From a virus (lineage: Duplodnaviria; Heunggongvirae; Uroviricota; Caudoviricetes), in the IMG/VR virus record IMGVR_UViG_2734482574_000013: a stretch of 43,794 bases of DNA; one strand, written 5' to 3'. Below the pieces are notes generated by a model. The model was given only the letters and a program-made list of their open reading frames with translations. It had not been told where the DNA came from and ran no database searches. Each line of letters begins with the position of its first letter. Within the stretch, counting starts at the first letter, position 1. Below are positions 9,796 through 43,500 of the stretch, piece after piece. The position numbers and the translations under genes were made by a program.

Positions 9796-10230
9796 ATGAA
9801 AAATATTGCGACAGGCGACGTTCTTGAACGTATCCGCAGACTGGCCCCGTCACATGTAACCGCGCCATTCAAGACGGTAGCGGAGTGGCGCGAGTGGCAA
9901 CTTTCCGAAGGCCAGAAACGTTGTGAGGAGATCAACCGTCAGAATCGTCAGTTGCGGGTGGAAAAAATTCTGAATCGCTCTGGCATCCAGCCATTGCACC
10001 GCAAATGCTCGTTTTCGAATTACCAGGTGCAGAACGAAGCGCAGCGATACGCGTTGAGTCAGGCGAAATCCATCGCTGATGAACTGATGACCGGGTGTAC
10101 AAATTTTGCGTTCAGCGGAAAACCTGGTACCGGGAAGAACCACTTAGCGGCAGCTATCGGGAATCGCCTGCTGAAAGACGGTCAGACAGTGATTGTGGTT
10201 ACCGTGGCTGATGTTATGAGTGCCCTGCAC
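9796..10230 (+). CDS. ydaV: YdaV, DnaC/IstB-like AAA+ helicase loader, 5' part only (3' end lost in N-run)
   Basis: Walker A motif GKPGTGKNHLAAAIG; the ORF runs directly into the N-run at 10231. Confidence 0.8.
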
Positions 10231-10569
10231 NNNNNNNNNNNNNNNNNNNNNNNNNNNNNNNNNNNNNNNNNNNNNNNNNNNNNNNNNNNNNNNNNNNNNN
10301 NNNNNNNNNNNNNNNNNNNNNNNNNNNNNNNNNNNNNNNNNNNNNNNNNNNNNNNNNNNNNNNNNNNNNNNNNNNNNNNNNNNNNNNNNNNNNNNNNNNN
10401 NNNNNNNNNNNNNNNNNNNNNNNNNNNNNNNNNNNNNNNNNNNNNNNNNNNNNNNNNNNNNNNNNNNNNNNNNNNNNNNNNNNNNNNNNNNNNNNNNNNN
10501 NNNNNNNNNNNNNNNNNNNNNNNNNNNNNNNNNNNNNNNNNNNNNNNNNNNNNNNNNNNNNNNNNNNNN
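10231..10569. other. Run of 339 N (masked or unsequenced); hides the ydaV 3' end
   Basis: Literal n characters in the sequence. Confidence 1.
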
Positions 10570-10593
10570 AATTTTTACCGGGAGGAAATTTTT

Positions 10594-11355
10594 ATGGAGA
10601 CTGTTTTTGACGCACTGAAAGCAATGGGAAAAGCCACATCCATAGAACTTGCTGCGCGACTTGATATCAGTCGTGAAGAAGTGCTGAACGAACTATGGGA
10701 ACTGAAAAAAGCTGGTTTCGTTGATAAAAGCGCGTACACCTGGCGTGTGGCTGATAACAACGTTCAGCAGGAACAGCCAATGCAGGCAGAACTGCCGGAA
10801 GAAACCACCACGGCAACTGTAGTGAAAATCTCAGAGTGCGATTTAACCGCGACGATTGAACAACGCGGACCACAAACGGCGGATGAACTGGCTACGCTGT
10901 TCGGTACAACATCCCGCAAAGTTGCTTCAACGCTGGCAATGGCAATCAGCAAAGGACGCCTGATTCGCGTAAACCAGAACAGTAAATTTCGTTACTGCAT
11001 GCCGGGCGATAATTTACCAGCAGAGCCGAAAGCTGCATCGGTAGCGGAAACTGATGGTAAAGCCTTTCCTCAGCCAGCCGGTGTTGCGTTACCAGTACAG
11101 GAAGCGGCAACACAGGAAGATATTAAAACAGAAACTGTGGCGGACATTGTGCAGTCGCTGCCATCGTTTACTGAAACGCAAGCGGATGACCTAGTTTTAC
11201 CATCGCTGCATATGGCAAACCGCGAACTGCGTCGGGCGAAAAATCATGTCCAGAAGTGGGAGCGAGTCTGCGCCGCGCTGCGGGAGCTGAACAAGCACCG
11301 GGATATTGTCCGACAGATTGTCGATTCCTCCAGTCGTATTGTGTCGGAAAAGTGA
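10594..11355 (+). CDS. ydaW: YdaW-like protein (253 aa, starts [12 protein letters not shown]), apparently intact
   Basis: RBS GGAGG 8 nt before the ATG at 10594; follows the replication genes; the ORF-track fusion with ydaV is an artefact of the N-run. Confidence 0.65.
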
Positions 11356-11787: not shown

Positions 11788-11985
11788 ACGTTACTAGATC
11801 AAAGAGCATTAGTTCATATGTAAATTGACATTTTTCTGGCACAGGGGAGAGCTAGCGTGGTTGTCCGCTTTGTGCCAATAGCGGACATTGCTGGCTCATG
11901 GTATGTTAGTTTAAGGAGGCAGGTTATGCCCTGTATTTCGCTGTGGTATAATAGTTGCGCAATTGATACAAGGGAGCGTTACATC

Positions 11986-12948
11986 GTGAAAATTGTTTTC
12001 GAGGTTAATGGAAAGAAAGTTCCACTAAAATCTTTAAAATACATAAGCAAAAAAGATCAACTCGAAGTAATGAAAAACTGGTTCTTTGAAAACTTTGAAG
12101 ATCCGGCAAATGCTTGTCCGTATGAAAGTAGAGAAGGTGGCTATGCTTACATATATGGCGGGCCGTATGATGCGAGCGAAGAACTACAATCCATCTTCGG
12201 TCAATATGTTAAATCTGAGTATATTGAGGAATTAGTAGATGAATTACAAACACAATGTTTTGACTGGTCTGGAAACTCAAATAATATAGATGATTGGTAC
12301 GATGATGATATCTACGACGCTGTAACGTCTTCCGGTAATCCGTATTTAAAATTCATTGATAATATCGATAAAATAAAAAAACTTGCAAAAGATAAAACTG
12401 AACAACAGCAAAAAAACCACTTGCTTAGTTTGCTCTACACGAATGTTATTACAGCTTTGGAAACGCTTTATGTTGAGCTATTCATTAATTCTATAGAGAA
12501 AGATGATGTCTACATAGCCAATTGTATAGAAAAAGGTAAGACTGAATTTAAAGTAAGCAAAGATATTGCTGCGTTGCCTTTCAAGGGTGAACCCATCGAG
12601 AAAATTAGGGGAGAGCTAATCAGGTCAATCAAGGAACACTTGATCAGTGCAAGCTGGCATAGCACTAAAAAGGTAATCGACCGCTATGAAGCTACATTCG
12701 ATATAAAAGTACAAAAAGACTGTCCGATAGAAGCTATTGAATTGGCAACCCTCAATCGAAATCACTTAGTGCATCGTGGTGGAAAGGATAAAGAAGGGAA
12801 CCTCGTAGTGATTACAGACCAGGATCTTGAAACGCTGATTGAAAATGCATCGAACCTGGCAATTATGCTCTACAACAGTTTAAATGTAGCAACGAATAAA
12901 ACCACCATTTTGCAACCAGATGACAAACCGTTCATTCATGAATTTTAA
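11986..12948 (+). CDS. Uncharacterized protein with a C-terminal HEPN-like RNxxxH motif (320 aa from GTG; alternative ATG at 11926 with AGGAGG RBS)
   Basis: AT-rich coding sequence; RBS AAGGGAG before the GTG at 11986; extended -10 TGgTATAAT at 11944-11952; motif RNHLVH encoded at 12757-12774. Confidence 0.6.
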   Translation: MKIVFEVNGKKVPLKSLKYISKKDQLEVMKNWFFENFEDPANACPYESREGGYAYIYGGPYDASEELQSIFGQYVKSEYIEELVDELQTQCFDWSGNSNNIDDWYDDDIYDAVTSSGNPYLKFIDNIDKIKKLAKDKTEQQQKNHLLSLLYTNVITALETLYVELFINSIEKDDVYIANCIEKGKTEFKVSKDIAALPFKGEPIEKIRGELIRSIKEHLISASWHSTKKVIDRYEATFDIKVQKDCPIEAIELATLNRNHLVHRGGKDKEGNLVVITDQDLETLIENASNLAIMLYNSLNVATNKTTILQPDDKPFIHEF

Positions 12949-12963
12949 TAGCGCAGGTCATAC

Positions 12964-13965
12964 ATGGATATTCGCACACGAAAGACAAAATTTTTAGAGT
13001 CGTTAGATTCAACTGAAGTGATACGCAAAGCAGTAAGTCTCGCTATAGATTGCATTATTGATAATCATAATAGTAATGAAGATACCCCCTTAGTTATTAC
13101 CAGCTATGATGATCTCTGTAGAATCCAGGTGCTAAATTATGTACAGGAGTTTTGCGAAGCTGCATTCCCTGATATGGATGAATATTACTTTAGTCCTAAC
13201 ATACTTCGCATCAACGGCAAGACTAGTGAAGAAGCTTGTATTAACTTAATTAAACTCTTAAGAAGTACAAAAGGCATGCTATTCTGGTCCGATGCCCCAT
13301 CGTGGTTCGCTAGCCTCCCCGACGGATTATTCCATGTTGTTAACATTGATCAAAAAATCGTTACTCGCGGCCTTAATAAGAAAAACTCTAAGCCGACAAT
13401 AATCAATAAAGATTACAGTGTAGATACACTACTATCAGAGCTATTTTTGAATGGCGCACACATGGAGCAACCCAACGTACACAACGTTTCTGAGGGAAAC
13501 ATGAAGTTCTATGATGAATGCCATGCTGGATTAATCAGACCAATACCCGCTCCAATAGGCGCGTCATACGATGAAGAGATCACAATTAATTCTCCAGATT
13601 GGCAAAAGCTCGCGTGTGTAGCTTTACGCCGCTATCAGTCGAAGGAATGTCATGACGGAATGCAATGGGATACAACCGATCATGGTTGGACTGATGTAAT
13701 CGCGTATCCATTCGTCGAAGAAATACAATCAATGGATAATAGTGGTTATCGACAATGTTTAGTTGGGCTGGTCACAATAAACAATTCAAATGCAAATTCT
13801 CCGTACCTATCTACCGTTTGGATACATCCATTTTATCGCAGGAGAGGGTTATTAAGTAAGTTATGGCCAAAATTACAAGAGTTATATGGAAGTAACTTCG
13901 AAATTGAGCGACCTAATGAAAATATGAAAGCATTTCTGAAAAGTGCGAAACACGCAGATTACTAA
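12964..13965 (+). CDS. Uncharacterized protein with a GNAT-like acetyltransferase-type C-terminus (333 aa)
   Basis: Starts 15 nt after the upstream gene stop (operon-like); AT-rich; C-terminal segment LVGLVTIN...VWIHPFYRRRGLLSKLW resembles the GNAT acetyl-CoA-binding motif. Confidence 0.55.
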   Translation: MDIRTRKTKFLESLDSTEVIRKAVSLAIDCIIDNHNSNEDTPLVITSYDDLCRIQVLNYVQEFCEAAFPDMDEYYFSPNILRINGKTSEEACINLIKLLRSTKGMLFWSDAPSWFASLPDGLFHVVNIDQKIVTRGLNKKNSKPTIINKDYSVDTLLSELFLNGAHMEQPNVHNVSEGNMKFYDECHAGLIRPIPAPIGASYDEEITINSPDWQKLACVALRRYQSKECHDGMQWDTTDHGWTDVIAYPFVEEIQSMDNSGYRQCLVGLVTINNSNANSPYLSTVWIHPFYRRRGLLSKLWPKLQELYGSNFEIERPNENMKAFLKSAKHADY

Positions 13966-18210: not shown

Positions 18211-18639
18211 ATGGGTTTTCGTAGCGCATCAATTCTTACGTTGATTATTAGTGGGATTATTATCGGGTGCACTGATGCTGTATCGACAAATTATCATGAC
18301 CGTACATCATATTACTCCGATAAAGCAATAGAGACACAGTATGTGAGTTCATCTGAACGTACTTCTGATGTTAGTGAGGATATCCGTCTGTATGCCCATC
18401 AAATCAAGAGCGCCATCGAAAAACAGTTCGGGGATGCGAGTAAGTATTCAGGAAAAGAGTGTACACTGAGAATGCATATGGCCCCGAATGGCCTTCTACT
18501 GGAGGTTAAAAGAGAAAGTGGAGACCTCGATTTATGTCGTGAAGCGATGAATGCGATAAAGAATGCTGATATACCTGCCCCCCCTTCGCCGGAAGTATAT
18601 AAAGTATTTCAAAATGGGGTGCTGGATTTTAAACCCTGA
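18211..18639 (+). CDS. Lipoprotein with TolA C-terminal (domain III)-like domain (142 aa)
   Basis: Lipobox IIGC after a hydrophobic signal; C-terminal 85 aa (YAHQIKSAIEKQF...CTLRMHMAPNGLLLEV...VYKVFQNGVLDFKP) closely resembles the recalled TolA C-terminus. Confidence 0.75.
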   Translation: MGFRSASILTLIISGIIIGCTDAVSTNYHDRTSYYSDKAIETQYVSSSERTSDVSEDIRLYAHQIKSAIEKQFGDASKYSGKECTLRMHMAPNGLLLEVKRESGDLDLCREAMNAIKNADIPAPPSPEVYKVFQNGVLDFKP

Positions 18640-18789
18640 TATTTATTGTTTTGTAATAAACGGTTTCGGCTTAGGTTTGTTCTGACACAGCTACGGCACT
18701 GAGCTAAATTTAGCGGATAGTCAGCTCTGAGCCAGTGGCGGACGTAACAACTACTATTGCTGAGATTTTAATGGATTGAGGAGCAAGAA

Positions 18790-19185
18790 GTGGGATTAAA
18801 GAAAATCGTTATGTTGACTTTTTGGGTCGGTTTTGTTGCGGGATGCACACCTTTACACCCTTCAGATTGCCACAAAACTACTGCTACAGGTAGTTGCAGT
18901 TCAGGACGCTGGGATGATCAGGATGAATGGGGGGCGCAAGCGCGGGGAATCAGAGCTGCAATTAATGCCAAACTTGATGAGCCGCATAACTGGAAAGGGA
19001 AAAAATGCAGGTTGCATATGGAATTCTCTCAGGATGGCACGGCGTTAAAAATATCTACCAGTAACGGTGATAAAGCCTATTGCGAAGCGATAAAGTCCGC
19101 AGCTCATAAAGCCAAATTTCCGGCCTTCAACAATCCGGAAGTCTACAGAGATTTTCAGAAATCTGGCTTTGACATGCGAGGTTAG
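18790..19185 (+). CDS. Second, more divergent lipoprotein with TolA C-terminal-like domain (131 aa, GTG start)
   Basis: Lipobox VAGC; shares the C..L.M..G...GD..C.A...A..A.FPA...PEVY..FQ pattern with the upstream paralogue; GGAG before the GTG. Confidence 0.65.
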   Translation: MGLKKIVMLTFWVGFVAGCTPLHPSDCHKTTATGSCSSGRWDDQDEWGAQARGIRAAINAKLDEPHNWKGKKCRLHMEFSQDGTALKISTSNGDKAYCEAIKSAAHKAKFPAFNNPEVYRDFQKSGFDMRG

Positions 19186-19652: not shown

Positions 19653-20143
19653 TGCCTCCATCATTACGAAAAGTCGTTGCTGCTGCTATTGGTGGCGGAG
19701 CAATTGCTATAGCATCAGTGTTAATCACTGGCCCAAGTGGTAACGATGGTCTGGAAGGTGTCAGCTACATACCATACAAAGATATTGTTGGTGTATGGAC
19801 TGTATGTCACGGGCATACAGGAAAAGNNNNNNNNNNNNNNNNNNNNNNNNNNNNNNNNNNNNNNNNNNNNNNNNNNNNNNNNNNNNNNNNNNNNNNNNNN
19901 NNNNNNNNNNNNNNNNNNNNNNNNNNNNNNNNNNNNNNNNNNNNNNNNNNNNNNNNNNNNNNNNNNNNNNNNNNNNNNNNNNNNNNNNNNNNNNNNNNNN
20001 NNNNNNNNNNNNNNNNNNNNNNNNNNNNNNNNNNNNNNNNNNNNNNNNNNNNNNNNNNNNNNNNNNNNNNNNNNNNGCAATGGAAAGGTCTCATGACTCG
20101 TCGTGAGATTGAGCGTGAAATCTGTTTGTGGGGTCAGCAATGA
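19652..20143 (+). CDS. SAR (signal-arrest-release) endolysin, phage-21 R-like; central part hidden by N-run
   Basis: N-terminal SAR segment [27 protein letters not shown]; start overlaps the holin stop; C-terminus [21 protein letters not shown]. Confidence 0.85.
19827..20076. other. Run of 250 N inside the endolysin gene
   Basis: Literal n characters. Confidence 1.
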
Positions 20144-20604: not shown

Positions 20605-20741
20605 AATCTTAACTACAATATGATTCATTTTGATGATTGTTTCATAAGGAACAGTGAAGTAAGATCTAAGAGGAGTTAAATTTTATACAGTATAATCATA
20701 ATATTGCAGCAAGGTGGTTATAATTGAAAGAATATTTAGAT

Positions 20742-22199
20742 ATGAATACATCTCATGTAAGAGTTGTTACTCATATGTGTGGGTTCCTGGTTTGGCTCTA
20801 TAGTCTTTCAATGTTGCCACCAATGGTTGTAGCATTGTTTTATAAAGAAAAAAGCCTGTTCGTTTTCTTTATAACTTTCGTTATATTTTTTTGCATTGGT
20901 GGCGGAGCGTGGTATACAACTAAGAAATCTGGCATTCAATTACGTACCCGTGATGGGTTTATTATAATTGTAATGTTTTGGATTTTGTTTTCTGTTATTA
21001 GTGCATTCCCTTTATGGATTGACTCAGAACTTAATTTAACGTTCATTGATGCTCTGTTTGAAGGGGTTTCTGGAATAACAACAACAGGAGCAACTGTAAT
21101 TGATGATGTTAGTTCATTACCTCGGGCATATTTGTACTATCGGTCACAGTTAAATTTTATAGGTGGTTTAGGAGTTATTGTTCTGGCGGTTGCAGTATTG
21201 CCATTATTGGGTATTGGTGGTGCAAAGCTTTATCAGTCAGAAATGCCGGGGCCATTTAAGGATGACAAACTCACTCCCCGCCTGGCCGATACGTCACGGA
21301 CACTGTGGATAACTTATTCTTTATTAGGTATTGCTTGTATTGTCTGTTATAGACTTGCAGGAATGCCTTTGTTTGATGCTATTTGTCACGGGATTTCCAC
21401 AGTTTCGCTTGGTGGTTTCTCAACTCATAGCGAGAGTATCGGATATTTTAATAACTATTTGGTTGAGCTGGTGGCTGGTTCTTTTTCCCTGCTATCGGCT
21501 TTCAACTTCACTCTTTGGTATATTGTTATTAGCAGAAAAACGATAAAACCTTTAATCAGAGATATTGAACTTCGTTTCTTTCTGTTAATAGCCTTAGGGG
21601 TGATCATTGTTACCTCTTTCCAGGTCTGGCATATAGGTATGTATGACTTGCATGGAAGTTTTATTCATTCGTTTTTTCTTGCCAGCTCCATGCTCACTGA
21701 TAATGGTTTAGCTACGCAGGATTATGCAAACTGGCCCACGCACACGATAGTGTTTTTGCTGTTGTCAAGTTTCTTTGGGGGATGTATAGGTTCAACCTGT
21801 GGTGGAATTAAGTCACTTCGATTTCTTATACTTTTCAAACAAAGCAAACACGAGATAAATCAGCTTTCTCATCCCAGAGCGTTGTTGAGTGTAAATGTAG
21901 GAGGGAAGATAGTTACAGATCGTGTAATGAGGTCTGTATGGAGTTTCTTTTTTCTTTATACTCTCTTCACGGTGTTTTTTATACTGGTGTTAAATGGTAT
22001 GGGATATGATTTTCTTACATCATTTGCAACAGTGGCTGCATGTATTAATAATATGGGATTAGGTTTTGGGGCTACTGCATCGTCATTCGGAGTGCTTAAT
22101 GACATTGCAAAATATTTAATGTGCATAGCTATGATTCTTGGTCGCCTTGAAATTTATCCTGTTATTATATTGTTTTCAGGTTTTTTTTGGCGCTCCTAA
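20742..22199 (+). CDS. trkG: Trk potassium uptake protein TrkG (485 aa from MNTSHVRVV)
   Basis: Multi-pass membrane protein matching recalled TrkG; visibly AT-rich relative to its flanks. Confidence 0.93.
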   Translation: MNTSHVRVVTHMCGFLVWLYSLSMLPPMVVALFYKEKSLFVFFITFVIFFCIGGGAWYTTKKSGIQLRTRDGFIIIVMFWILFSVISAFPLWIDSELNLTFIDALFEGVSGITTTGATVIDDVSSLPRAYLYYRSQLNFIGGLGVIVLAVAVLPLLGIGGAKLYQSEMPGPFKDDKLTPRLADTSRTLWITYSLLGIACIVCYRLAGMPLFDAICHGISTVSLGGFSTHSESIGYFNNYLVELVAGSFSLLSAFNFTLWYIVISRKTIKPLIRDIELRFFLLIALGVIIVTSFQVWHIGMYDLHGSFIHSFFLASSMLTDNGLATQDYANWPTHTIVFLLLSSFFGGCIGSTCGGIKSLRFLILFKQSKHEINQLSHPRALLSVNVGGKIVTDRVMRSVWSFFFLYTLFTVFFILVLNGMGYDFLTSFATVAACINNMGLGFGATASSFGVLNDIAKYLMCIAMILGRLEIYPVIILFSGFFWRS

Positions 22200-22336
22200 T
22201 ATATGGCTGATTTATAATTGTGAGTTTAATATTATGTTGACTCACTCATTGATCCAATACCTAACTTTACCAGCAACACCTCCGCCCCCAGTAGCACTGG
22301 CTGCTGGGGTGCGTTTTATTCATAAAGCAAGGCTGT

Positions 22337-23125
22337 ATGAGCGAGAAATTAAAGATAGTCTATCGCCCATTACAAGAATTGTCACCGTATGCGCACAACG
22401 CCAGGACGCACAGTACTGAGCAGGTGGCACAACTGGTAGAAAGTATTAAGCAATTCGGCTGGACTAATCCGGTGCTGATTGACGAAAAGGGCGAAATTAT
22501 TGCGGGTCACGGTCGTGTTATGGCGGCTGAAATGCTCAAAATGGATTCTGTTCCGGTCATTGTTCTGTCTGGCCTGACGGATGAGCAGAAAAAGGCGTAC
22601 CGCCTGGCAGATAATCGCCTGCCGATGAATGCTGGCTGGGATGAAGATCTGTTGCGGATGGAGCTGTCGGACCTAATCAATGCTGATTTTGATGTCTCCC
22701 TGACAGGCTTCATCCCGGCAGAAATTGATGAACTGTTGACGGATGTTTTGCCCGGTACAGGAAATGAGGAGGAGCCGTATACGACGAAAATTGATACGCC
22801 TGTTTATGAGCCGTCAGGCGGTAAACCGGATATCAGTGAACTGTACGACGATACGAAAACTCAGGAGCTGATCAGCCGGATACGTTCGGCGTCCCTTGAT
22901 CCTGATATTGAGAAATTCCTCCTGTGTGCAGCAGAACGTCACACGGTGTTTAATTTCAGCAGAATTGCGGACTATTACGCTCATGCCCCCGCTGAAATTC
23001 AGTGCCTTTTCGAGGAGTCGGCGCTGGTGATCATTGATTATCAGCAGGCTATTGAAAATGGATTTGTCCGAATGACGCAGCGCATGGTGGAGATCATGCA
23101 TGGCGGGGAGGAGGAATATGCGTGA
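22337..23125 (+). CDS. ParB N-terminal-like nuclease domain protein (262 aa)
   Basis: ParB/Srx-type GHGR motif (GEIIAGHGRVMAA); N-terminus resembles the short K-12 Rac remnant ynaK as I recall it. Confidence 0.75.
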   Translation: MSEKLKIVYRPLQELSPYAHNARTHSTEQVAQLVESIKQFGWTNPVLIDEKGEIIAGHGRVMAAEMLKMDSVPVIVLSGLTDEQKKAYRLADNRLPMNAGWDEDLLRMELSDLINADFDVSLTGFIPAEIDELLTDVLPGTGNEEEPYTTKIDTPVYEPSGGKPDISELYDDTKTQELISRIRSASLDPDIEKFLLCAAERHTVFNFSRIADYYAHAPAEIQCLFEESALVIIDYQQAIENGFVRMTQRMVEIMHGGEEEYA

Positions 23126-24050
23126 TGATTTTTGCGCCTTTATTCTGACTCACGGGCGACCGGACAAAGTTCTGACTTACCGGACGTTGCGTCGTGCTGG
23201 CTATACCGGGAAAATTTTTATCGTTGTTGATGATGAAGATAAGACACGGCATCAGTACATGGCTGAATTTGGTGAACAGGTGCTGGTATTTTCCAAAGCC
23301 GATATTGCTAGTCGTTTTGACGAAGCCGATAATTTTAGTGACCGCCGCTCAATTTTTTACGCCCGTAATGCCTGTTTCGACCAGGCAAAACTGGTCGGGT
23401 GTAAATACTTCATTCAGCTCGATGATGATTATCACGAGTTCCAGTTTCGGGTGGATCGCAACTATGACCAGGCCTATTTCCCGATAAGGAAACTGGATGA
23501 GATCCTTTCTGAAATGCTTGCGTACTACGAATCAATACCTGCTCTTTCCATCGCTATGTCGCAGGGCGGGGATTTTCTTGGTGACAATGGCGGCCATGCT
23601 TCGTGGGTGAAACGCAAGGCAATGAACAGCTTTATCTGTTCGGTTGATCGACCGTTCTCATTCATGGGGCGCATTAACGAGGATGTGAATACGTACACGA
23701 ATCTCGGTCGCTGTGGTGAATTGTTTATGACGATCGGTGCTGTCCAGTTAGGGCAGAAACAGACGCAGAAAAACAGCGGCGGAATGACCGAGCTGTATCT
23801 GGATTCCGGAACCTACGTTAAAAGTTTTTACTCCGTCATGTATGCGCCGTCGTGCGTAAAAATCTCACTTATGGGTGCCAGTCATAAACGCATTCACCAT
23901 CAGGTCACCTGGAACAACGCTGCAGTAAAAATCCTTCACGAAAAATACAGGAAGAAGACACCCTGCATATCAATGGGGGTGACAAATGATTCCGTATTCG
24001 AAAGTCGAGTCTCTGGCAGCGTGCCGGATGACTGCACAACAAATCGCTGA
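23118..24050 (+). CDS. Hypothetical protein (310 aa from MRDDFC) with a DxD-like motif
   Basis: RBS GGAGGAGG before the ATG at 23118; overlaps the ParB-like gene end; motifs IFIVVDDED and FIQLDDDY. Any glycosyltransferase-like assignment is tentative. Confidence 0.5.
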   Translation: MRDDFCAFILTHGRPDKVLTYRTLRRAGYTGKIFIVVDDEDKTRHQYMAEFGEQVLVFSKADIASRFDEADNFSDRRSIFYARNACFDQAKLVGCKYFIQLDDDYHEFQFRVDRNYDQAYFPIRKLDEILSEMLAYYESIPALSIAMSQGGDFLGDNGGHASWVKRKAMNSFICSVDRPFSFMGRINEDVNTYTNLGRCGELFMTIGAVQLGQKQTQKNSGGMTELYLDSGTYVKSFYSVMYAPSCVKISLMGASHKRIHHQVTWNNAAVKILHEKYRKKTPCISMGVTNDSVFESRVSGSVPDDCTTNR

Positions 24051-24237
24051 CGTTCTGGATGTTGATCTGAACCGACTGAAAGAAAATCGGGAAGCAATGA
24101 CAGATTTTTATGCGGCCATCCGTAAGGGCAGAGCGAAAGGTGAAGCCGAGTTACGAGCGGCATTGTTTAAGCTTGCCAGAAAAGGGGATGCCTTTGCTCT
24201 GCGCGAACTACTCAGGGTGGATAAAAATCAGGACTAA
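23986..24237 (+). CDS. Small hypothetical protein (83 aa) upstream of terminase
   Basis: RBS GGGGGTGA before the ATG at 23986; overlaps the upstream gene by 65 nt. Confidence 0.4.
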   Translation: MIPYSKVESLAACRMTAQQIADVLDVDLNRLKENREAMTDFYAAIRKGRAKGEAELRAALFKLARKGDAFALRELLRVDKNQD

Positions 24238-24240
24238 CTG

Positions 24241-25335
24241 ATGAGCAGACCGGACTGGGGGGCGTTGCAGCAGGAGTATATTGCTGAATACACCCGCTCC
24301 GGTATATCTCCGGTGGCATGGTGTGAAGCAAGGGGACTGAATTACGCAACAGCCCGTCGTTACATCAAAAAAACTCCGAAAAATGCGCAGACAGAAATGT
24401 GCAAAACTGCGCAAAAAAGTGCGCAGAAAAAATCTGCGCAGACTGCACAAAAGCGGAACGAAAAATCTCAGGAAAAAAAGCCAGTATTCGATGCGGGCCT
24501 GAATGAGGGCGACGCGGAGGAATTTTCGTTCTGTCCCGATGAATTCGGCATTTCTGACCAGCAGGCTAAGTTTGCGATGCTTGTTGCTCAGGGTAAAAAG
24601 CCGACAGAGGCGTACCGACTAGCCGGTTATGAGGGGCAAGGTGCGACAGCTAACAGCAACGCCAGTCGTATGCTTAGAAATGCCAGGGTTTTTCGCGCTA
24701 TCAGCTACTTCCGCAATCAGTACCAGAAACGCTATACCGCAGACCTGGATTTACTAGTGAGTCAGTTGATGGCTATTGTCCTGGCCGACCCCAATCAGCT
24801 TGCACAATTTCGCCGTGTTAACTGCCGTTATTGCTGGGGCGAGAATCATCTCTACCAGTGGCGCGATATAGCAGAATTCGACAAGGCAGCGGCGCAGGCT
24901 TCCAGAGATGGCAAACCCGAACCGGAATATGGAGGCCTCGGCTTTGTTGATAACGCCATACCCAATCCGGACTGCCCGAAGTGCTGCGGTGAGGGAACGG
25001 GACAGCTTTATATGGCTGATACCACTCTGCTTGATGGGGATGCGCGGCAATTATATGCAGGGGCAAAATTCGGAAAATTCGGCGTTGAGATCCTGCTGGA
25101 GGATAAGGCTGCCGCCCGGCGTGAATTGTTGCGTTTGTTTTCTGCTGGCGGGGCTTTATGTGCAGATAAGCGGCTACGGGAACTGGAAATTGAACGGCGC
25201 AGAATGGAAAACCAGAAGCTGCGCAAAGAGATCGAAACGGTGGAAGATAATGAACATCCCCAGCCTGTGGCGATCAATATTAATGTGGTTGATGCCAGAG
25301 TAAGGAGTGATGAAGATGATCTCTCCGACGCTTAA
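24241..25335 (+). CDS. Terminase small subunit (364 aa)
   Basis: Segment AGYEGQGATANSNASRMLRNARV typical of phage small terminase; immediately upstream of the large terminase. Confidence 0.75.
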   Translation: MSRPDWGALQQEYIAEYTRSGISPVAWCEARGLNYATARRYIKKTPKNAQTEMCKTAQKSAQKKSAQTAQKRNEKSQEKKPVFDAGLNEGDAEEFSFCPDEFGISDQQAKFAMLVAQGKKPTEAYRLAGYEGQGATANSNASRMLRNARVFRAISYFRNQYQKRYTADLDLLVSQLMAIVLADPNQLAQFRRVNCRYCWGENHLYQWRDIAEFDKAAAQASRDGKPEPEYGGLGFVDNAIPNPDCPKCCGEGTGQLYMADTTLLDGDARQLYAGAKFGKFGVEILLEDKAAARRELLRLFSAGGALCADKRLRELEIERRRMENQKLRKEIETVEDNEHPQPVAININVVDARVRSDEDDLSDA

Positions 25336-26617
25336 TGTGCCTCAGGCGCGATTTCTTTCAATGCCCCATAAATTTAAAGCCTATATTGCTGGTTTTGGCT
25401 CGGGCAAAACATGGGTTGGGTGTGGCGGCATATGCAAGGGGATTTGGGAGCATCCAGGTATAAATCAGGGATATTTTGCGCCAACGTATCCCCAAATTCG
25501 CGATATTTTTTACCCTACAGTGGAAGAAGTTGCTGCTGACTGGGGATTGAACGTAAAAATTAATGAGGGAAATAAAGAGGTTCACTTTTATTACGGACGC
25601 CAGTATCGGGGAACCACTATCTGCAGATCGATGGAGAAGCCACAAACGATCGTCGGTTTCAAAATTGGTAATGCGTTGGTGGATGAACTGGACATTTTGC
25701 CGAAGGAAAAAGCCAGAACGGCGTGGCGCAAGATAATTGCACGTATGCGTTATAAGATTGATGGACTTCGCAACGGTATTGACGTTACAACCACGCCGGA
25801 AGGATTCAAATTTGTCTACGAGCAGTTTGTTAAAGCCGTGCGTGAAAAAACAGAGCTGGCCTCACTGTATGGTCTGGTGCAGGCATCTACTTTCGATAAT
25901 GAAAAGAACCTGCCAGCAGATTACATTCCTTCGCTTCTTGAATCATACCCTCCAGAGCTGATTAAAGCCTATCTTCGAGGACAGTTTACTAACCTGACAA
26001 GTGGTACTGTTTACCATCAGTTTGACCGGAAACTGAATAATTGCGAAGAAGTGGAGCAGCCAGGGGAGCCGATTTATATTGGGATGGATTTTAACGTTGG
26101 AAAGATGGCGGGAATCGTCCATGTGCTGCGTTTGGGGCTTCCATGTGCGGTAACTGAAATCATCAATGCCTACGATACGCCGGATATGATCCGCATCATT
26201 AAAGAACGCTTCTGGCTGTATGATGGGAATGATTACCGGAAAGTGAGGGAAATTTATATTTATCCAGATGCTTCCGGGGATTCCAGAAAATCAAGTAACG
26301 CAAGTACGACGGATATAGCCCAGCTTAAGCAGGCTGGTTTTAACGTTGTGGTGAACAGCTCGAACCCGCCAGTAAAAGATCGCGTTAACTCAATGAATGC
26401 AATGTTCTGCAATGCCAATGGTGAGCGTCGCTATAAAGTTAATGTGAAGCGTTGCCCGTTATATGCCGAATCTCTGGAGCAACAGGTCTGGGATGAGAAG
26501 GGGGAGCCTGATAAAAAATCTGGCAATGATCACCCGAATGATGCCGGAGGTTATTTCATCGTTAAGCAATTCCCTATTGTCAAACCGACCGGAAGAGTCA
26601 CATCACTTCGGATTTAA
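25307..26617 (+). CDS. Terminase large subunit (436 aa)
   Basis: Walker A-like AGFGSGKTW near the N-terminus; followed by the portal gene. Confidence 0.88.
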   Translation: MMKMISPTLNVPQARFLSMPHKFKAYIAGFGSGKTWVGCGGICKGIWEHPGINQGYFAPTYPQIRDIFYPTVEEVAADWGLNVKINEGNKEVHFYYGRQYRGTTICRSMEKPQTIVGFKIGNALVDELDILPKEKARTAWRKIIARMRYKIDGLRNGIDVTTTPEGFKFVYEQFVKAVREKTELASLYGLVQASTFDNEKNLPADYIPSLLESYPPELIKAYLRGQFTNLTSGTVYHQFDRKLNNCEEVEQPGEPIYIGMDFNVGKMAGIVHVLRLGLPCAVTEIINAYDTPDMIRIIKERFWLYDGNDYRKVREIYIYPDASGDSRKSSNASTTDIAQLKQAGFNVVVNSSNPPVKDRVNSMNAMFCNANGERRYKVNVKRCPLYAESLEQQVWDEKGEPDKKSGNDHPNDAGGYFIVKQFPIVKPTGRVTSLRI

Positions 26618-26619
26618 TT

Positions 26620-28026
26620 ATGGCTGATATATCAACACCCAACCTCGACTATAACGATATGCTGGAGGCGTGGGATATTAACGACGCACTGATGGGCGGT
26701 ACGCTTGAAATGCGCAGGCAGGGGGAAAATTATCTCCCAAAATGGCCTAACGAAGATGAAGACGCTTATAAAAAACGCCTGTCTGTGGCTACGCTACTTC
26801 CTGTGTATGAAGAAAGCATCAAGCAAAATATTGGGCGCATATTTGCAGAGCCGACAGTATTGAGTGAGGAAACGCCGGCAAAAATCAGGGAATATGCAGA
26901 AAATATCGACATGGAGGGGAGCCGACTGGATGTGTGGGCGCAGCAATTTTTCAGCCTCGCATTTCAGTATGGTGTGGCACATGCGCTGGTGGACTATCCA
27001 CGAACGGATATGAAAGAGATTCGGACAAAAGCCGATGAAAACGCGACCGGTGGTCGTCCGTACGTTACGATGCTGAATCCACGCCAGGTTATTGGATGGA
27101 AATCGAAAGTTGAAAAAGGGAAAGTTGTTCTCACTGATTTGCGTATAAAAGAGGTCATCATTATTGATGGTGATGATTTCGGGCAGAAGAAGGTGGAGCA
27201 GATCCGCCATATTATGCCCCGTCGAGTTGAAATTTATCGACGTAGCGAAGGCACTAATGGCGAATCTGTCTGGACGCTTCATGAGTCATGGAATACCAGC
27301 CGTGATGATATTCCTCTGGTAACACTGTACACGAAGAAAACAGGATTTATGCGTGGTACACCGCCATTGCTTAATCTTGGCTTGCTGAATATCAAGCACT
27401 GGCAAAGCCAGAGCGAGCAGGACAATATTCTTCATGTTGCCCGCGTTCCATTGCTGGTGGCCTACGGGCTGGACAGGAATGAAGAACTGACGGTTGGTGC
27501 ATCCACCGCTACGATTTTTGAGGACAGAACAAAAAATGGCCTCGAATATGTTGAACATAGTGGCGCAGCGATAGAATCTGGCGAAACATCACTTGAGAAG
27601 CTGGAAAATCAGATGCGTCATGCCGGCGCTAAACTTCTGCGTGCTGAAAATACATCCACCAAATCTGTTGATCAGACTAATGAAGAGCGAATGCAGGAAA
27701 ACTCGCCGCTTTATACAATGGCGAACTCCCTCGAAGATGCCCTCGATAATATTCTCCAGATAATGGCGGAATGGATCGGAGAGAGTTGCGGTGGCAATGT
27801 GGATGTGCGCACTGAACTGGATGTATCTGCCCAGGTGTTTGACTCATCCTCCGCGCTGGCTGTTCAGTCATTGCGTCAGGGCGGTGATATACGTCAGATT
27901 GATGCGGTTCGGGTGTTGCAGGCGTTGAAATTTATCGATCAGGATTCCCGTCCAGAGGAAGTGATCGATGAATTAAAAAATCAGAGTGTAATGCTGATGG
28001 AAATCAATGATGCAAACCGTGAATGA
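26620..28026 (+). CDS. Portal protein (468 aa)
   Basis: Size and position directly after the large terminase. Confidence 0.78.
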   Translation: MADISTPNLDYNDMLEAWDINDALMGGTLEMRRQGENYLPKWPNEDEDAYKKRLSVATLLPVYEESIKQNIGRIFAEPTVLSEETPAKIREYAENIDMEGSRLDVWAQQFFSLAFQYGVAHALVDYPRTDMKEIRTKADENATGGRPYVTMLNPRQVIGWKSKVEKGKVVLTDLRIKEVIIIDGDDFGQKKVEQIRHIMPRRVEIYRRSEGTNGESVWTLHESWNTSRDDIPLVTLYTKKTGFMRGTPPLLNLGLLNIKHWQSQSEQDNILHVARVPLLVAYGLDRNEELTVGASTATIFEDRTKNGLEYVEHSGAAIESGETSLEKLENQMRHAGAKLLRAENTSTKSVDQTNEERMQENSPLYTMANSLEDALDNILQIMAEWIGESCGGNVDVRTELDVSAQVFDSSSALAVQSLRQGGDIRQIDAVRVLQALKFIDQDSRPEEVIDELKNQSVMLMEINDANRE

Positions 28027-40589: not shown

Positions 40590-43500
40590 ATGGGTAAAGG
40601 CAGCAGTAAGGGGCATACCCCGCGCGAAGCGAAGGACAACCTGAAGTCCACGCAGCTGCTGAGTGTGATCGATGCCATCAGTGAAGGGCCGGTTGAAGGT
40701 CCGGTNNNNNNNNNNNNNNNNNNNNNNNNNNNNNNNNNNNNNNNNNNNNNNNNNNNNNNNNNNNNNNNNNNNNNNNNNNNNNNNNNNNNNNNNNNNNNNN
40801 NNNNNNNNNNNNNNNNNNNNNNNNNNNNNNNNNNNNNNNNNNNNNNNNNNNNNNNNNNNNNNNNNNNNNNNNNNNNNNNNNNNNNNNNNNNNNNNNNNNN
40901 NNNNNNNNNNNNNNNNNNNNNNNNNNNNNNNNNNNNNNNNNNNNNNNNNNNNNNNNNNNNNNNNNNNNNNNNNNNNNNNNNNNNNNNNNNNNNNNNNNNN
41001 NNNNNNNGGAAAAAGACATCACCATTAAGGGCAAAACCACCTCGCAGTATCTGGTCTCGGTGGTGGTGNNNNNNNNNNNNNNNNNNNNNNNNNNNNNNNN
41101 NNNNNNNNNNNNNNNNNNNNNNNNNNNNNNNNNNNNNNNNNNNNNNNNNNNNNNNNNNNNNNNNNNNNNNNNNNNNNNNNNNNNNNNNNNNNNNNNNNNN
41201 NNNNNNNNNNNNNNNNNNNNNNNNNNNNNNNNNNNNNNNNNNNNNNNNNNNNNNNNNNNNNNNNNNNNNNNNNNNNNNNNNNNNNNNNNNNNNNNNNNNN
41301 NNNNNNNNNNNNNNNNNNATACAGCGGTATCTGGGACGGAACGTTAAAACCAGCATACAGCAACAACATGGCCTGGTGTCTGTGGGATATGCTGACCCAC
41401 CCGCGCTACGGCATGGGGAAACGTCTTGGTGCGGCGGATGTGGACAAATGGGCGCTGTATGTCATCGGCCAGTACTGCGACCAGTCAGTGCCGGACGGCT
41501 TTGGCGGCACGGAGCCGCGCATCACCTGTAATGCGTACCTGACCACACAGCGCAAGGCGTGGGATGTGCTCAGTGATTTCTGCTCGGCGATGCGCTGTAT
41601 GCCGGTATGGAACGGGCAGACGCTGACGTTCGTGCAGGACCGACCGTCGGATAAGGTGTGGACCTATAACCGCAGTAATGTGGTGATGCCGGATGATGGC
41701 GCGCCGTTCCGCTACAGCTTCAGCGCCCTGAAAGACCGCCATAATGCCGTTGAGGTGAACTGGATTGACCCGGATAACGGCTGGGAGACGGCGACAGAGC
41801 TTGTGGAGGATACGCAGGCCATTGCCCGTTACGGTCGTAACGTCACGAAGATGGATGCTTTTGGCTGTACCAGCCGGGGGCAGGCACACCGCGCCGGGCT
41901 GTGGCTGATTAAAACAGAACTGCTGGAAACGCAGACCGTGGACTTCAGCGTGGGCGCAGAAGGGCTTCGCCATGTGCCGGGCGATGTCATTGAAATCTGT
42001 GATGATGACTATGCGGGTATCAGCATCGGCGGGCGCGTGCTGGCGGTAAACAGCCAGACCCGGACGCTGACGCTCGACCGTGAAATCACGCTGCCATCCT
42101 CCGGTACCATGCTGATAAGCCTGGTTGACGGAAGTGGCAATCCGGTCAGCGTGGAGGTTCAGTCCGTCACCGACGGCGTGAAGGTGAAAGTGAGCCGTGT
42201 TCCTGACGGCGTTGCTGAATACAGCGTGTGGGGGCTGAAGCTGCCGACGTTGCGCCAGCGCCTGTTCCGCTGTGTGAGTATCCGTGAGAACGATGACGGC
42301 ACGTATGCCATCACTGCCGTGCAGCATGTACCGGAAAAAGAAGCCATCGTGGATAACGGGGCGCACTTTGACGGCGACCAGAGCGGCACGGTGAATGGTG
42401 TCACGCCGCCAGCGGTGCAGCACCTGACTGCCGAAGTCACCGCAGACAGCGGGGAATATCAGGTGCTGGCGCGCTGGGACACGCCGAAGGTGGTGAAGGG
42501 CGTGAGCTTCCTGCTCCGTCTGACCGTAACAGCGGATGACGGCAGTGAGCGGCTGGTCAGCACGGCCCGGACGACGGAAACCACTTACCGCTTCACACAA
42601 CTGGCGCTGGGGAACTACAGGCTGACAGTCCGGGCAGTAAATGCGTGGGGGCAGCAGGGCGATCCGGCGTCGGTATCGTTCCGGATTGCCGCACCGGCAG
42701 CGCTGTCGCGGATTGAGCTGACGCCGGGCTATTTTCAGATAACCGCCACGCCGCATCTTGCGGTTTATGATCCGACGGTACAGTTTGAGTTCTGGTTCTC
42801 GGAAAAGCGGATTGCGGATATCAGGCAGGTTGAAACCACAGCACGCTATCTTGGCACGGCGCTGTACTGGATAGCCGCCAGTATCAATATCAAACCGGGC
42901 CATGATTATTACTTTTATATCCGCAGTGTGAACACCGTTGGCAAATCGGCATTCGTGGAGGCTGTTGGTCAGCCGAGTGATGATGCATCCGGTTATCTGG
43001 ATTTTTTCAAAGGCGAGATAGGGAAAACCCATCTGGCTCAGGAGCTGTGGACGCAGATTGATAACGGTCAGCTTGCGCCTGACCTGGCTGAAATCAGGAC
43101 GTCCATTACGGATGTCAGCAATGAAATCACGCAGACCGTCAATAAGAAACTGGAAGACCAGAGTGCGGCAATTCAGCAGATACAGAAGGTTCAGGTTGAT
43201 ACAAATAATAACCTGAACAGCATGTGGGCTGTGAAGCTGCAGCAGATGCAGGACGGACGCCTTTATATCGCGGGTATTGGTGCCGGTATTGAGAACACCC
43301 CTGACGGCATGCAGAGTCAGGTGCTGCTGGCGGCGGACAGGATTGCGATGGTTAATCCTGCGAATGGCAACACAAAACCGATGTTTGTTGGTCAGGGCGA
43401 TCAGATATTCATGAACGACGTGTTCCTGAAACGCCTGACGGCCCCCACCATTACCAGCGGTGGAAATCCATCGGCATTTTCCCTGACTCCGGACGGAAAG

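Follow-up and report, generated by a model that had tools for sequence, protein, structure and literature searches.

Hypermodification of their DNA shapes the arms race of phages against CRISPR, glycosylase and restriction defences, and is a source of epigenomics tools. To our knowledge, all characterised TAGT-type glycosyltransferase reactions use a hydroxyl on 5hmC, on 5hmU or on a sugar, and ordinary DNA has no known acceptor for them. Iyer et al. in 2013 (NAR 41:7635) are said to have defined the TAGT family and to have discussed ParB. Among its characterised members, the T2/T6 enzyme β-glucosyl-HMC-α-glucosyltransferase (PMC13216743; PMC13390438) and the metavirome GT-A enzymes (bioRxiv 10.1101/2023.12.21.572611) glycosylate DNA. 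The known enzymes act on 5hmC or on glucose attached to 5hmC, and the 5hmC is supplied either by a methyltransferase and a dioxygenase or by a dCMP hydroxymethylase. Recent surveys found no such partner pathway for the majority of phage GT-A genes or for hundreds of TAGT genes, called 'solitary', and left them unexplained (10.1101/2023.12.21.572611; PMC13216743); the solitary genes were found in 288 of the 753 TAGT-bearing phage genomes (PMC13216743). GREB1 and the kinetoplastid base-J glucosyltransferase (JGT) are reported relatives in the same GT-A lineage. JGT uses 5hmU made by JBP dioxygenases and GREB1 is a large eukaryotic protein with a reported protein substrate (PMC7968844); neither has a ParB-type partner.

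A second line of work concerns ParB-fold proteins that serve DNA-modifying enzymes. ParB176 activates the phage thymine dioxygenase 5mYOX176 specifically on dsDNA, where the enzyme depends on it (O'Toole et al., PNAS 2026, PMC13229309), and a subfamily of ParB domains is fused to DNA methyltransferases (PMC12704722). In this study, we analysed a gene pair of an Escherichia coli prophage that encodes a ParB-like protein and a TAGT-family glycosyltransferase. The family of the transferase and the domain label of the ParB-like protein were already known; what is new is the obligate pairing, the C-terminal domain of the partner and the absence of acceptor-making enzymes. We propose, at roughly even odds (about 0.5), that the pair is a late-expressed, post-replicative DNA glycosylation module in which the ParB-like protein tethers the transferase to dsDNA or activates it there.

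Organisation of the locus

The window, that is, the whole 43.8-kb stretch of DNA analysed, comes from an intact E. coli Rac-like prophage, in which the pair stands just 5' of the DNA-packaging genes (Table 1). The original prediction, made from the sequence, had described a 262-aa protein with a ParB N-terminal domain and a GHGR motif, a 310-aa protein with acidic motifs overlapping it, and an 83-aa ORF followed by the small terminase. This description proved accurate in every part: the first motif reads AGHGR at residues 56-60, the acidic motifs of the 310-aa protein are KIFIVVDDED (residues 32-41) and FIQLDDDY (residues 98-105), and the genes follow each other in that order. It had also stated that K-12 Rac keeps only short remnants at this place, and indeed ynaK of MG1655 is an 87-aa stump that runs straight into ydaY.

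Table 1. Features of the ParB-like/transferase locus (positions in the window)
Feature	Position	Strand	Basis or remark
Terminator-like GC-rich hairpin with T-run	22286..22309	+	Consensus scan: 10-pair stem, 7 GC pairs; function predicted
ParB-like partner, 262 aa, pI 4.5	22337..23125	+	ORF; Pfam ParB_N; phrog_620; intact form of K-12 ynaK
ParB/Srx nucleotide-binding domain and two helices, residues 1-135	22337..22741	+	AF2 model, Foldseek, PDB sequence matches
Linker motif Y148-T-T-K-I-D-T-P155-V-Y157-E-P159	22778..22813	+	In segment predicted disordered
Helical C-terminal domain of partner, residues 170-254	22844..23098	+	No Pfam family
Shine-Dalgarno GGAGGAGGAA and transferase ATG (23118)	23107..23125	+	Within last ParB-like codons; sequence read
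TAGT-family GT-A glycosyltransferase, 310 aa	23118..24050	+	
DxD metal/nucleotide-sugar motif D102-D103-D104 in QLDDDY	23421..23429	+	Invariant in homologue alignment
Basic C-terminal segment of transferase, residues 217-288, pI 9.7	23766..23981	+	High conservation
83-aa basic ORF between transferase and small terminase	23986..24237	+	PGAP start at 24028
Small terminase (24241-25335) and large terminase (25307-26617)	24241..26617	+	Terminase_2, Terminase_6N, Terminase_6C

The first ATG of the transferase ORF is at 23100, which would give 316 aa; the conserved start MRDDFCAF corresponds to the ATG at 23118, which is preceded by GGAGGAGGAA. The TGA stop of the ParB-like gene occupies 23123-23125 and the transferase ATG lies 8 nt inside the ParB ORF, an overlap that suggests translational coupling. 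Both proteins align end to end with their homologues and are thus intact. In strain EC2, which is 100% identical, the PGAP annotation has just a 'partial' ynaK of 86 aa, the remaining ParB ORF being unannotated. At least 80% of positions 22000-25400 is carried by 840 of 5426 complete E. coli genomes (~15%); this frequency and the recurrence of the pair across phyla argue against a chance arrangement. The hairpin upstream of the pair lies 3' of the trkG cargo gene and 27 nt 5' of the ParB-like start, so late transcription of the pair would need read-through.

The 83-aa ORF matches phrog_309, 'terminase small subunit', at positions 145-218. An ORF of 82-85 aa is found at the equivalent place in Yersinia, Pantoea and Serratia loci and is absent from other phyla; it is part of the packaging genes and not of the conserved pair. 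In PADLOC and NCBIfam searches, neither the transferase nor the 83-aa ORF matched a defence system or a named family. Elsewhere in the window, a 519-aa ORF at 9796-11355 was discarded as an artefact of an N-masked stretch.

The glycosyltransferase

The 310-aa protein matches the Pfam family TAGT (PF20691) with 118.8 bits against a cut-off of 27.5, over profile positions 4-205 of 205, and phrog_842 at 8e-104; RefSeq names it "GREB1-related protein". Its AF2 model and fold searches gave a confident GT-A fold, and its best structural matches in BFVD are TAGT proteins. The original prediction had proposed to look for a nucleotide-sugar transferase by profile and structure searches, and this is what was found, rather than a structural or packaging family lacking enzymatic motifs, which it had allowed as the contrary outcome. 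Its statement that the function was unknown overstated the novelty, since both Pfam and PHROGs have a curated entry for the family and RefSeq has a name for the protein.

In an alignment with 30 homologues (58-82% identity), aspartates D38, D41 and D102-D104 never change, nor do R14 and E188-D189...Y193. R14, D102-D104 and E188-D189...Y193 fit the R...DDD...EDY/F pattern that has been described for the active sites of GT-A DNA glycosyltransferases from phages (bioRxiv 10.1101/2023.12.21.572611). Judged by its sequence and predicted structure, the transferase is a full-length member of TAGT with fold and catalytic motifs intact. It has the Pfam family, the GT-A fold and the active-site pattern in common with the T2/T6 and metavirome enzymes. 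TAGT DNA glycosyltransferases are phage-encoded and often lie near ParB and terminase genes, as is the case here. The T6-type enzymes are only remotely similar to it (22% identity for that of Aeromonas phage 65; E 2.7e-5 for the Klebsiella phage PKO111 structure) and, unlike them, the subfamily here comes with an obligate partner and carries an additional C-terminal segment that is conserved and basic. This segment, residues 217-288, lies mostly beyond the Pfam model, has pLDDT <50 at residues 217-273, and is a candidate acceptor- or DNA-binding region. The transferase homologues as a whole are basic (median pI 8.8). UDP-galactopyranose mutase genes (4 ORFs) and tandem second transferases near homologous pairs point to real nucleotide-sugar chemistry.

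Temperate phages often carry glycosyltransferases that modify the O-antigen. The transferase fold also resembles GT2-type enzymes that act on many acceptors, including TarP, and other GT2 genes stand beside the capsid genes of the related phage L086. Such observations would suit an enzyme with another target, such as the glycans of the host envelope, in lysogenic serotype conversion, or else virion proteins, RNA or a nucleotide. This is the least probable of the readings that we considered: no flippase or membrane partner gene of the GtrA/GtrC type was found in the window or the conserved neighbourhood, the gene lies in the late region and not beside the attachment site, its obligate partner is of the ParB type, and hosts with unrelated envelopes, as well as an archaeal virus, share the pair. 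A serotype-converting transferase of the gtr type was ruled out by the lack of membrane partners and the late-region position. Queuosine in tRNA as a universal acceptor was ruled out as well, because the pair is present in a haloarchaeal virus and archaea, as far as we know, lack queuosine.

The ParB-like partner

The 262-aa protein matches ParB_N (PF02195) with 29.3 bits (cut-off 26.3) and phrog_620 over its full length (1.7e-90). N21, R23, S36, G41, G57-H-G-R60 and N93 are present in its ParB-like domain, G57 and R60 being the conserved positions of the Box II GxxR, and Foldseek matched the domain to ParB-CDP, Noc and PadC (E 3e-6). None of the nuclease families was matched in profile searches. 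The 'ParB-like nuclease' of the original prediction is an old domain label, and the domain corresponds to the ParB/Noc CTP-binding fold with no sign of a nuclease.

This fold is common to canonical ParABS ParB, Noc and KorB. Canonical ParB, however, comes with an HTH/parS-binding domain, a ParA gene and a ParA-binding motif region, whereas the partner has none of the three and is acidic. Structural and sequence matches end at about residue 145 and no HTH or other DNA-binding domain was found in the partner, no parA was found in the prophage, and the NCBIfam model TIGR00180 scored 38 bits, below its 58-bit cut-off. Identity as a partition ParB of a ParABS system was ruled out by the lack of HTH and ParA. 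The hydrolysis glutamate of MxParB is His or Asn in the partners, as matched by position and not by structure-based alignment.

ParB-methyltransferase fusions of phages and prophages, which commonly stand at the start of late operons, are closely related to the partner over its N-terminal 140 residues. Residues 10-144 match the N-terminal part of the PADLOC 'Type II methyltransferase' (MTase_II) at 1.5e-38, a region that corresponds by sequence to the ParB domain of such fusions, and the N-terminal ~140 residues match phrog_498 at 6e-51. In the fusions the ParB domain is covalently joined to an enzyme that transfers methyl groups. In the present case it is joined to a putative adaptor domain, and the enzyme is a separate, apparently translationally coupled gene for glycosyl transfer; no DNA methyltransferase domain was found in the partner polypeptide, the rest of which is a family-specific C-terminal domain.

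The AF2 model of the partner consists of a nucleotide-binding domain (NBD) and helices up to residue 134, a segment predicted to be disordered at 136-169 (pLDDT <50) and a helical part at 170-254. The predicted layout agrees with that published for proteins of the ParB176 type, namely an NBD, a short helical segment and, after a disordered linker, a C-terminal domain; a DNA-binding domain is lacking (PMC13229309). N14, R16, S29 and R56 of ParB176 correspond to N21, R23, S36 and R60 of the partner. ParBs of this type are encoded beside a post-replicative DNA-modifying enzyme and often near the terminase, and the partner likewise lies by the terminase. The enzyme differs: 5mYOX176 is a dioxygenase, whereas the gene adjacent to the ParB-like gene here encodes a glycosyltransferase and no 5-methylpyrimidine dioxygenase is next to it.

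The most constant part of the partner lies behind the ParB domain. In 47 of 47 partners from many phyla, Y148, P155 and Y157 do not vary and residue 149 is either T or S, giving the consensus Y-[TS]-x-K-I-x-x-P-x-Y before the C-terminal domain. Within that domain, which has no match in Pfam, L195, R201, Y214, E226 and D234 are invariant across phyla. The Box II arginine is kept in only 36 of the 47, and the C-terminal domain stands alone, with no ParB domain, in L100, L126, L139, L141 and Vibrio phage pv27 and also in 40 of the 77 viral loci. The universal partner is thus the acidic C-terminal domain with the preceding motif, not the ParB nucleotide-binding domain, and this points to the unannotated domain and motif as the real specificity element. 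The idea that the motif binds the β-clamp or PCNA was dropped, because the motif departs from the consensus of such binding motifs and is also kept in the full-ParB forms.

An invariant Tyr/Thr motif in a segment predicted to be disordered would also suit the main rival explanation, in which the transferase glycosylates its own partner, with the motif as acceptor and the C-terminal domain as recognition element, much as glycogenin-type or peptide-modifying glycosyltransferases do. The product would be a glycosylated acidic protein, for example an injected or regulatory factor. That the motif and C-terminal domain are the only part always present and that no enzyme generating a DNA acceptor is linked to the pair agree with this explanation. 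The family relative GREB1 is reported to O-GlcNAcylate protein (PMC7968844), which also weakens the DNA reading. In addition, a 320-aa radical-SAM enzyme is encoded 3' of the transferase in 18 viral loci, and its best matches, which are weak, include peptide-maturase radical-SAM/SPASM families; the gene is, however, absent from this window and from most loci. Glycosylation of the partner would account neither for the ParB domain of the DNA-methylase-fusion kind in most partners nor for the terminase or polymerase/clamp genes as neighbours, and an invariant motif is equally expected of a docking or activating peptide. We therefore consider it unlikely, and prefer a transferase that acts on DNA.

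Pairing, distribution and neighbouring genes

The partner is encoded immediately upstream of the transferase in 59 of 64 species genomes, and the five exceptions are truncated or at contig ends. Conversely, when viral contigs were retrieved through the partner alone, each of the 77 had the transferase within 2.5 kb. The two ORFs overlap in 40 of 43 loci, and the proteins have diverged in a correlated manner (r = 0.64; Mantel 0/2000). Viral contigs scanned with the E. coli protein gave near-identical Rac-like prophages only; the diversity came from the species-level genome scan and from a scan led by a distant partner sequence. On these sequence data, the two genes form an obligate module that spans bacterial phyla and is found in one archaeal (haloarchaeal) virus, and their co-occurrence and correlated divergence are compatible with the enzyme needing its partner to act on dsDNA.

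In 48 related loci the pair is followed by large terminases, which belong to four or more unrelated Pfam families. Nocardia phage NTR1 has the pair right against the large terminase gene, and no small subunit is annotated between them. A place directly 5' of the small terminase that is conserved whatever the terminase family might mean that the pair acts in packaging itself, the ParB-like protein marking or organising the start region for the terminase and the transferase-like protein being non-catalytic or regulatory; the idea that ParB acts in packaging has been cited to Aravind and co-workers (PMC8256090). We regard this as very improbable. The GT-A catalytic motifs are all invariant across phyla, which argues for an active enzyme, and the partner is acidic and without a DNA-binding domain. 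Furthermore, many phages have the pair inside replication modules, distant from the terminase, and most phages with the same terminase families do not have it, so it is not a core packaging component. The original prediction had offered DNA modification, anti-restriction or packaging as the role of the module: the first two remain the best-supported reading, and the third ranks low. It had noted neither that the constant part of the 262-aa protein is its C-terminal half nor that the enzymes which usually make the acceptor for this family are lacking.

Role of the pair and the nature of the acceptor

In the DNA glycosylation module that we favour, the 310-aa protein would be a metal-dependent GT-A enzyme that moves a sugar from a nucleotide-sugar onto DNA, after replication, when the phage DNA awaits packaging. 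The 262-aa protein would be its obligate accessory subunit: the C-terminal domain and the Y-T-x-K-I-x-x-P-x-Y motif would bind or activate the transferase, and the N-terminal ParB-type domain would tether the complex to double-stranded DNA. The likely benefit would be that the injected genome is shielded from host nucleases, or that the sugar serves as a packaging mark. DNA as the acceptor, the two-protein complex, the tethering role and late expression are the parts of this model that we infer.

Several findings favour glycosylation of DNA. The transferase has the TAGT family, the GT-A fold and the invariant R14/DDD/ED..Y motifs, and its characterised relatives glycosylate DNA. The NBD of the partner belongs to the subfamily fused to DNA methyltransferases, and the ParB176 precedent, the obligate pairing and the context of DNA-transaction genes agree with such a role, as do the basic character of the transferases and their conserved tail. 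On the other hand, this reading is weakened by the uniformly acidic partners (pI 4.1-5.2, n=47) that have no DNA-binding domain, and by the lack of both an acceptor-generating enzyme and, in ordinary DNA, an acceptor of the known TAGT type. Tethering by the ParB domain cannot be a requirement of the core reaction, since the Box II arginine is not always kept and many partners have no ParB domain.

No TET/JBP, thymidylate-synthase-like hydroxymethylase or kinase gene was found in the window, and the complete 38-kb phage phi jlb1 has no TET/JBP or hydroxymethyl-pyrimidine synthesis gene. None of the 25 commonest Pfam families among the 141 + 150 neighbouring ORFs (291) of 144 loci is a 5hmC- or 5hmU-making enzyme, although single genes of rarer families may have been missed. 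This TAGT gene thus showed no genomic association with a TET/JBP dioxygenase or a pre-replicative hydroxymethylase, and no supplier of the 5hmC used by the known TAGT enzymes was found. No modified base has been reported in any pair-carrying phage. If no hydroxymethyl-pyrimidine is made, the acceptor would be in ordinary DNA, either a base, whether canonical or methylated, or the end of a DNA molecule. It is possible, though we hold it to be rather doubtful, that the pair carries out a kind of glycosylation not yet described: either a sugar placed directly on ordinary DNA, or a glycan linked to Tyr/Thr in the conserved motif of the partner's linker.

Either variant, if true, would give a function to many 'solitary' TAGT genes of phages and define a new adaptor domain of enzymes that modify DNA or protein. 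A large subgroup of the unexplained TAGT genes proves to be a strict two-protein system, and this subgroup spans many bacterial phyla and a haloarchaeal virus, reaches about 15% of complete E. coli genomes and is present in Rac-like phages that can be induced. With E. coli as the host, the question of the solitary-TAGT acceptor is directly answerable by standard genetics and mass spectrometry. The pair also extends the emerging idea that ParB-fold proteins are accessory factors of DNA-modifying enzymes.

In the ordinary-DNA variant, the sugar would go to a base, canonical or methylated, or to a DNA end that packaging creates, and the ParB-type clamp domain would hold the enzyme there. In phages whose partner has no ParB domain, the sliding clamp of the replisome may hold the enzyme on DNA instead. 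In such phages the pair is found between the genes for a family-A DNA polymerase and a β sliding clamp, and a clamp gene is present in 18 of 49 loci without the ParB domain, compared with 3 of 85 full-ParB loci.

Co-occurrence of the two genes

Across genomes, the gene for the 262-aa ParB-like protein and that for the 310-aa transferase form an obligate module. A genome scan with the transferase alignment as query, in which each species was represented by one genome, gave 64 loci in Enterobacterales, Bacteroidota, Veillonella, Clostridia, Spirochaetes, Verrucomicrobia, Kiritimatiellae, Alphaproteobacteria, Saccharibacteria and others. In 59 of them, the gene directly upstream on the same strand encodes a homologue of the 262-aa protein, and the remaining five were truncated or at contig ends. 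Overlap of the two ORFs was seen in 40 of 43 loci, and the divergence of one protein is correlated with that of the other (r = 0.64; Mantel 0/2000). Cultured carriers include Rac-like coliphages, a Salmonella phage, Nocardia phage NTR1, the Lactobacillus phages phi jlb1, c5, LL-Ku and phiLdb, Vibrio jumbo phages and the haloarchaeal virus HHTV-2.

Viral contigs were searched with the partner motif and C-terminal region alone. Among the loci recovered, 77 had sufficient sequence, and each of these carried a transferase of the subfamily, directly downstream in 70 and directly upstream or at most 2.5 kb away in seven; the ParB domain was absent from 40 of the 77 partners. At two loci (L126:6460-8906 and L164), two pairs lie in tandem with one short partner per transferase, which hints at cognate pairing.

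Domains of the ParB-like partner

Residues 1-135 of the partner are a ParB/Srx nucleotide-binding domain. Its score against Pfam ParB_N is slightly over threshold, its sequence matches in the PDB are Noc and ParB, and Foldseek found ParB-CDP, PadC and Noc (E 3e-6). The domain is nearest to phage ParB domains fused to DNA methyltransferases (PADLOC methylase model, 1.5e-38; phrog_498), and this kinship agrees with a recent fold survey (PMC12704722). In the model it is followed by two helices, predicted disorder (136-169) and a helical C-terminal domain (170-254) that matched no Pfam family. No HTH domain was found in the partner, and no parA gene in the prophage. The same domain architecture has been described for ParB176, which a phage thymine dioxygenase needs for action on double-stranded DNA (PMC13229309).

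Among 47 partners, N21 and G57 are the invariant residues of the N-terminal domain, and the nucleotide-binding R60 is retained in just 36. Invariant in the linker and C-terminal domain are Y148, P155, Y157, L195, R201, Y214, E226 and D234, and the motif Y-[TS]-x-K-I-x-x-P-x-Y falls in the predicted disordered linker. Short forms of 113-145 aa, found at several loci and in Vibrio phage pv27, consist only of this motif and the C-terminal domain. Judged by conservation, the C-terminal half of the 262-aa protein, not the ParB domain, is the conserved partner of the transferase. The partners are uniformly acidic (pI 4.1-5.2) and the transferases basic (median 8.8).

Family and fold of the transferase

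The transferase is a full-length match to PF20691 (TET-associated glycosyltransferase, TAGT; 118.8 bits) and matches phrog_842 at 8e-104; its RefSeq name is "GREB1-related protein". Thirty homologues (58-82% identity) retain HGR, DDED, DE.DNF, YARN, LDDDY, QGGD, RKAMN, NEDVN.Y, TQ..GGMT, GTYVKSFY and R.HH. The kept motifs include R...DDD...EDY, the pattern of phage GT-A DNA glycosyltransferases (10.1101/2023.12.21.572611). Confidence of the AlphaFold model is high over residues 1-215, and among viral models the nearest are those of TAGT proteins (E 1.7e-21). Residues 217-288 are strongly conserved, basic (pI 9.7) and badly modelled. The E. coli protein also has an acidic 22-aa C-terminal tail (23985-24050), whose coding sequence overlaps the beginning of the 83-aa ORF; the homologues (~288 aa) lack this tail.

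Gene neighbourhood

Neither the prophage nor the complete genome of phi jlb1 (38 kb) yielded a TET/JBP dioxygenase, a hydroxymethylase of the thymidylate-synthase type or a base kinase; in phi jlb1, all early genes without assignment are shorter than 120 aa. The same three kinds of enzyme were absent from the 25 commonest Pfam families both of 141 upstream ORFs and of 150 neighbour ORFs of the viral loci. The only generally conserved neighbours are the small and large terminases, the latter from at least four unrelated families. Sporadic neighbours are methyltransferases, PAPS-reductase-like genes and replication genes, and some loci also have a second transferase or a UDP-galactopyranose mutase.

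Two architectures were seen in viral contigs. One is ParB-transferase(-transferase)-radical SAM-terminase. The 320-aa radical-SAM enzyme is encoded in 18 contigs, and in at least 13 (L174, L185-L187, L192, L196, L205, L207, L210, L212, L224, L227, L228; e.g. L207:6208-7167) its gene lies directly 3' of the transferase, before the terminase. The enzyme contains a CxxxCxxC motif and ends in a Cys-rich C-terminus; its matches, to SPASM/twitch, MoaA-like and peptide-maturase families, are generic only. Its role could be to ready the acceptor, to change the sugar or to modify the motif of the partner.

The other runs from a family-A polymerase through a ParB-less partner and the transferase to a beta sliding clamp (L159-L169, L175, L180, L182, L190, L219, L226; e.g. 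L162:4072-6456), sometimes with two or three transferase copies and inverted gene order. ParB-less loci have the clamp gene in 18 of 49 cases and full-ParB loci in 3 of 85 (Fisher 7e-7, relatedness ignored), suggesting that the clamp may take the place of the ParB domain.

Possible function of the pair

TAGT is a known family, and ParB genes have been seen near phage DNA-modification clusters (PMC8256090, 10.1101/2023.12.21.572611). The most coherent reading, to which we assign a probability of about 0.5, is that the pair forms a module that glycosylates DNA after its replication. Catalysis and contact with DNA would fall to the transferase, the C-terminal domain and motif of the partner would bind or activate it, and the optional ParB domain would hold the module on DNA, as the replisome clamp might in other phages. 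In the prophage the pair lies downstream of the Q-like antiterminator, the lysis genes and a terminator-like hairpin, just upstream of the terminase genes; from this position we infer late expression, during packaging.

Less probable are a role purely in packaging and a target in the envelope, virion or RNA, given that the catalytic motifs are invariant, that the partner is of ParB type and that the pair is spread across hosts. The weak spot of DNA glycosylation is its chemistry. Characterised TAGT-family enzymes glycosylate 5hmC, or glucose already on 5hmC, of phage DNA (PMC13390438, 10.1101/2023.12.21.572611, PMC13216743). Since there is no hydroxymethyl handle here, the acceptor would have to be something in ordinary DNA, a kind of acceptor that the family is not known to use. 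For this reason we retain as a substantial, if rather improbable, rival that the sugar acceptor is the partner itself, at its invariant Tyr/Thr motif. The radical-SAM neighbours are consistent with such an acceptor, as is GREB1, a eukaryotic relative reported to act on protein (PMC7968844).

Many GT-A/TAGT genes without a dioxygenase, thymidylate-synthase homologue or primary glucosyltransferase have been left unexplained (10.1101/2023.12.21.572611, PMC13216743). The E. coli locus makes this question of the solitary TAGT testable, which is the main source of its moderate interest. The strict pair, the C-terminal domain and motif of the partner, or a function were not found described in the literature compared, to which the 2013 TAGT-defining paper did not belong.

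Annotation and other features of the prophage

The window, a Rac-like lambdoid prophage from E. coli, has the gene order integrase, recET, immunity, replication, Q-like antiterminator, lysis genes, trkG cargo, packaging, head and tail. Region 22000-25400 is 100% identical to strain EC2, and at least 80% of it is present in 840 of 5426 complete E. coli genomes.

Coordinates of the paired genes and the genes that follow them
Feature	Position	Remark	Basis
ParB-like protein	22337-23125	262 aa	ORF
Transferase	23118-24050	310 aa; 316 aa from an upstream ATG	ORF
83-aa ORF	23986-24237		ORF
Small terminase	24241-25335		ORF
Large terminase	25307-26617		ORF
Portal gene	26620-28026	next after large terminase	

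The original prediction had placed the 262-aa, 310-aa, 83-aa and terminase ORFs here, and all were found, together with its motifs GHGR in the 262-aa protein and IFIVVDDED and FIQLDDDY in the 310-aa protein. The true transferase start is the ATG at 23118: the N-terminus MRDDFCAF is kept in homologues, and GGAGGAGGAA lies just 5' of it. This ATG sits 8 nt within the ParB-like gene (TGA stop, 23123-23125). As the prediction also stated, K-12 has remnants only: in MG1655, ynaK is reduced to a stump of 87 aa that is fused to ydaY. The label "nuclease" turned out to be an inherited name. In EC2, PGAP calls the intact gene (L001:20338-21118, equal to 22337-23117 of the window) an 86-aa 'incomplete' ynaK pseudogene and leaves ~520 nt of it without annotation, likely because the K-12 stump served as reference. 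RefSeq annotation counts of the gene are therefore too low.

The low-GC (37.7%) cargo gene trkG (20724-22199) is an insertion that separates the lysis cassette from the ParB-like gene, and a strong terminator-like hairpin 3' of it (22286-22309) ends the insert. In a Yersinia enterocolitica prophage (L088:2180-3332), the same cargo site holds genes for a heat-labile-enterotoxin-like A subunit (Enterotoxin_a / Scabin-like) and an LT-IIB subunit. Adjoining ORFs of 363 and 333 aa in a low-GC stretch (11857-13965) have only weak matches, to a HEPN/RES N-terminal domain (22 bits) and a GNAT acetyltransferase (20 bits), and may be toxin-antitoxin or defence cargo; the second is frameshifted in EC2. 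Immediately 5' of the holin, two ORFs (18211-19185) have a TolA C-terminal domain and are annotated in EC2 as a tolA fragment and a TolA C-terminal-domain protein. There are four masked N runs (10231-10569, 19827-20076, 40706-41007 and 41069-41318). These give rise to spurious long ORFs, among them one of 519 aa at 9796-11355, and break the lysozyme gene.
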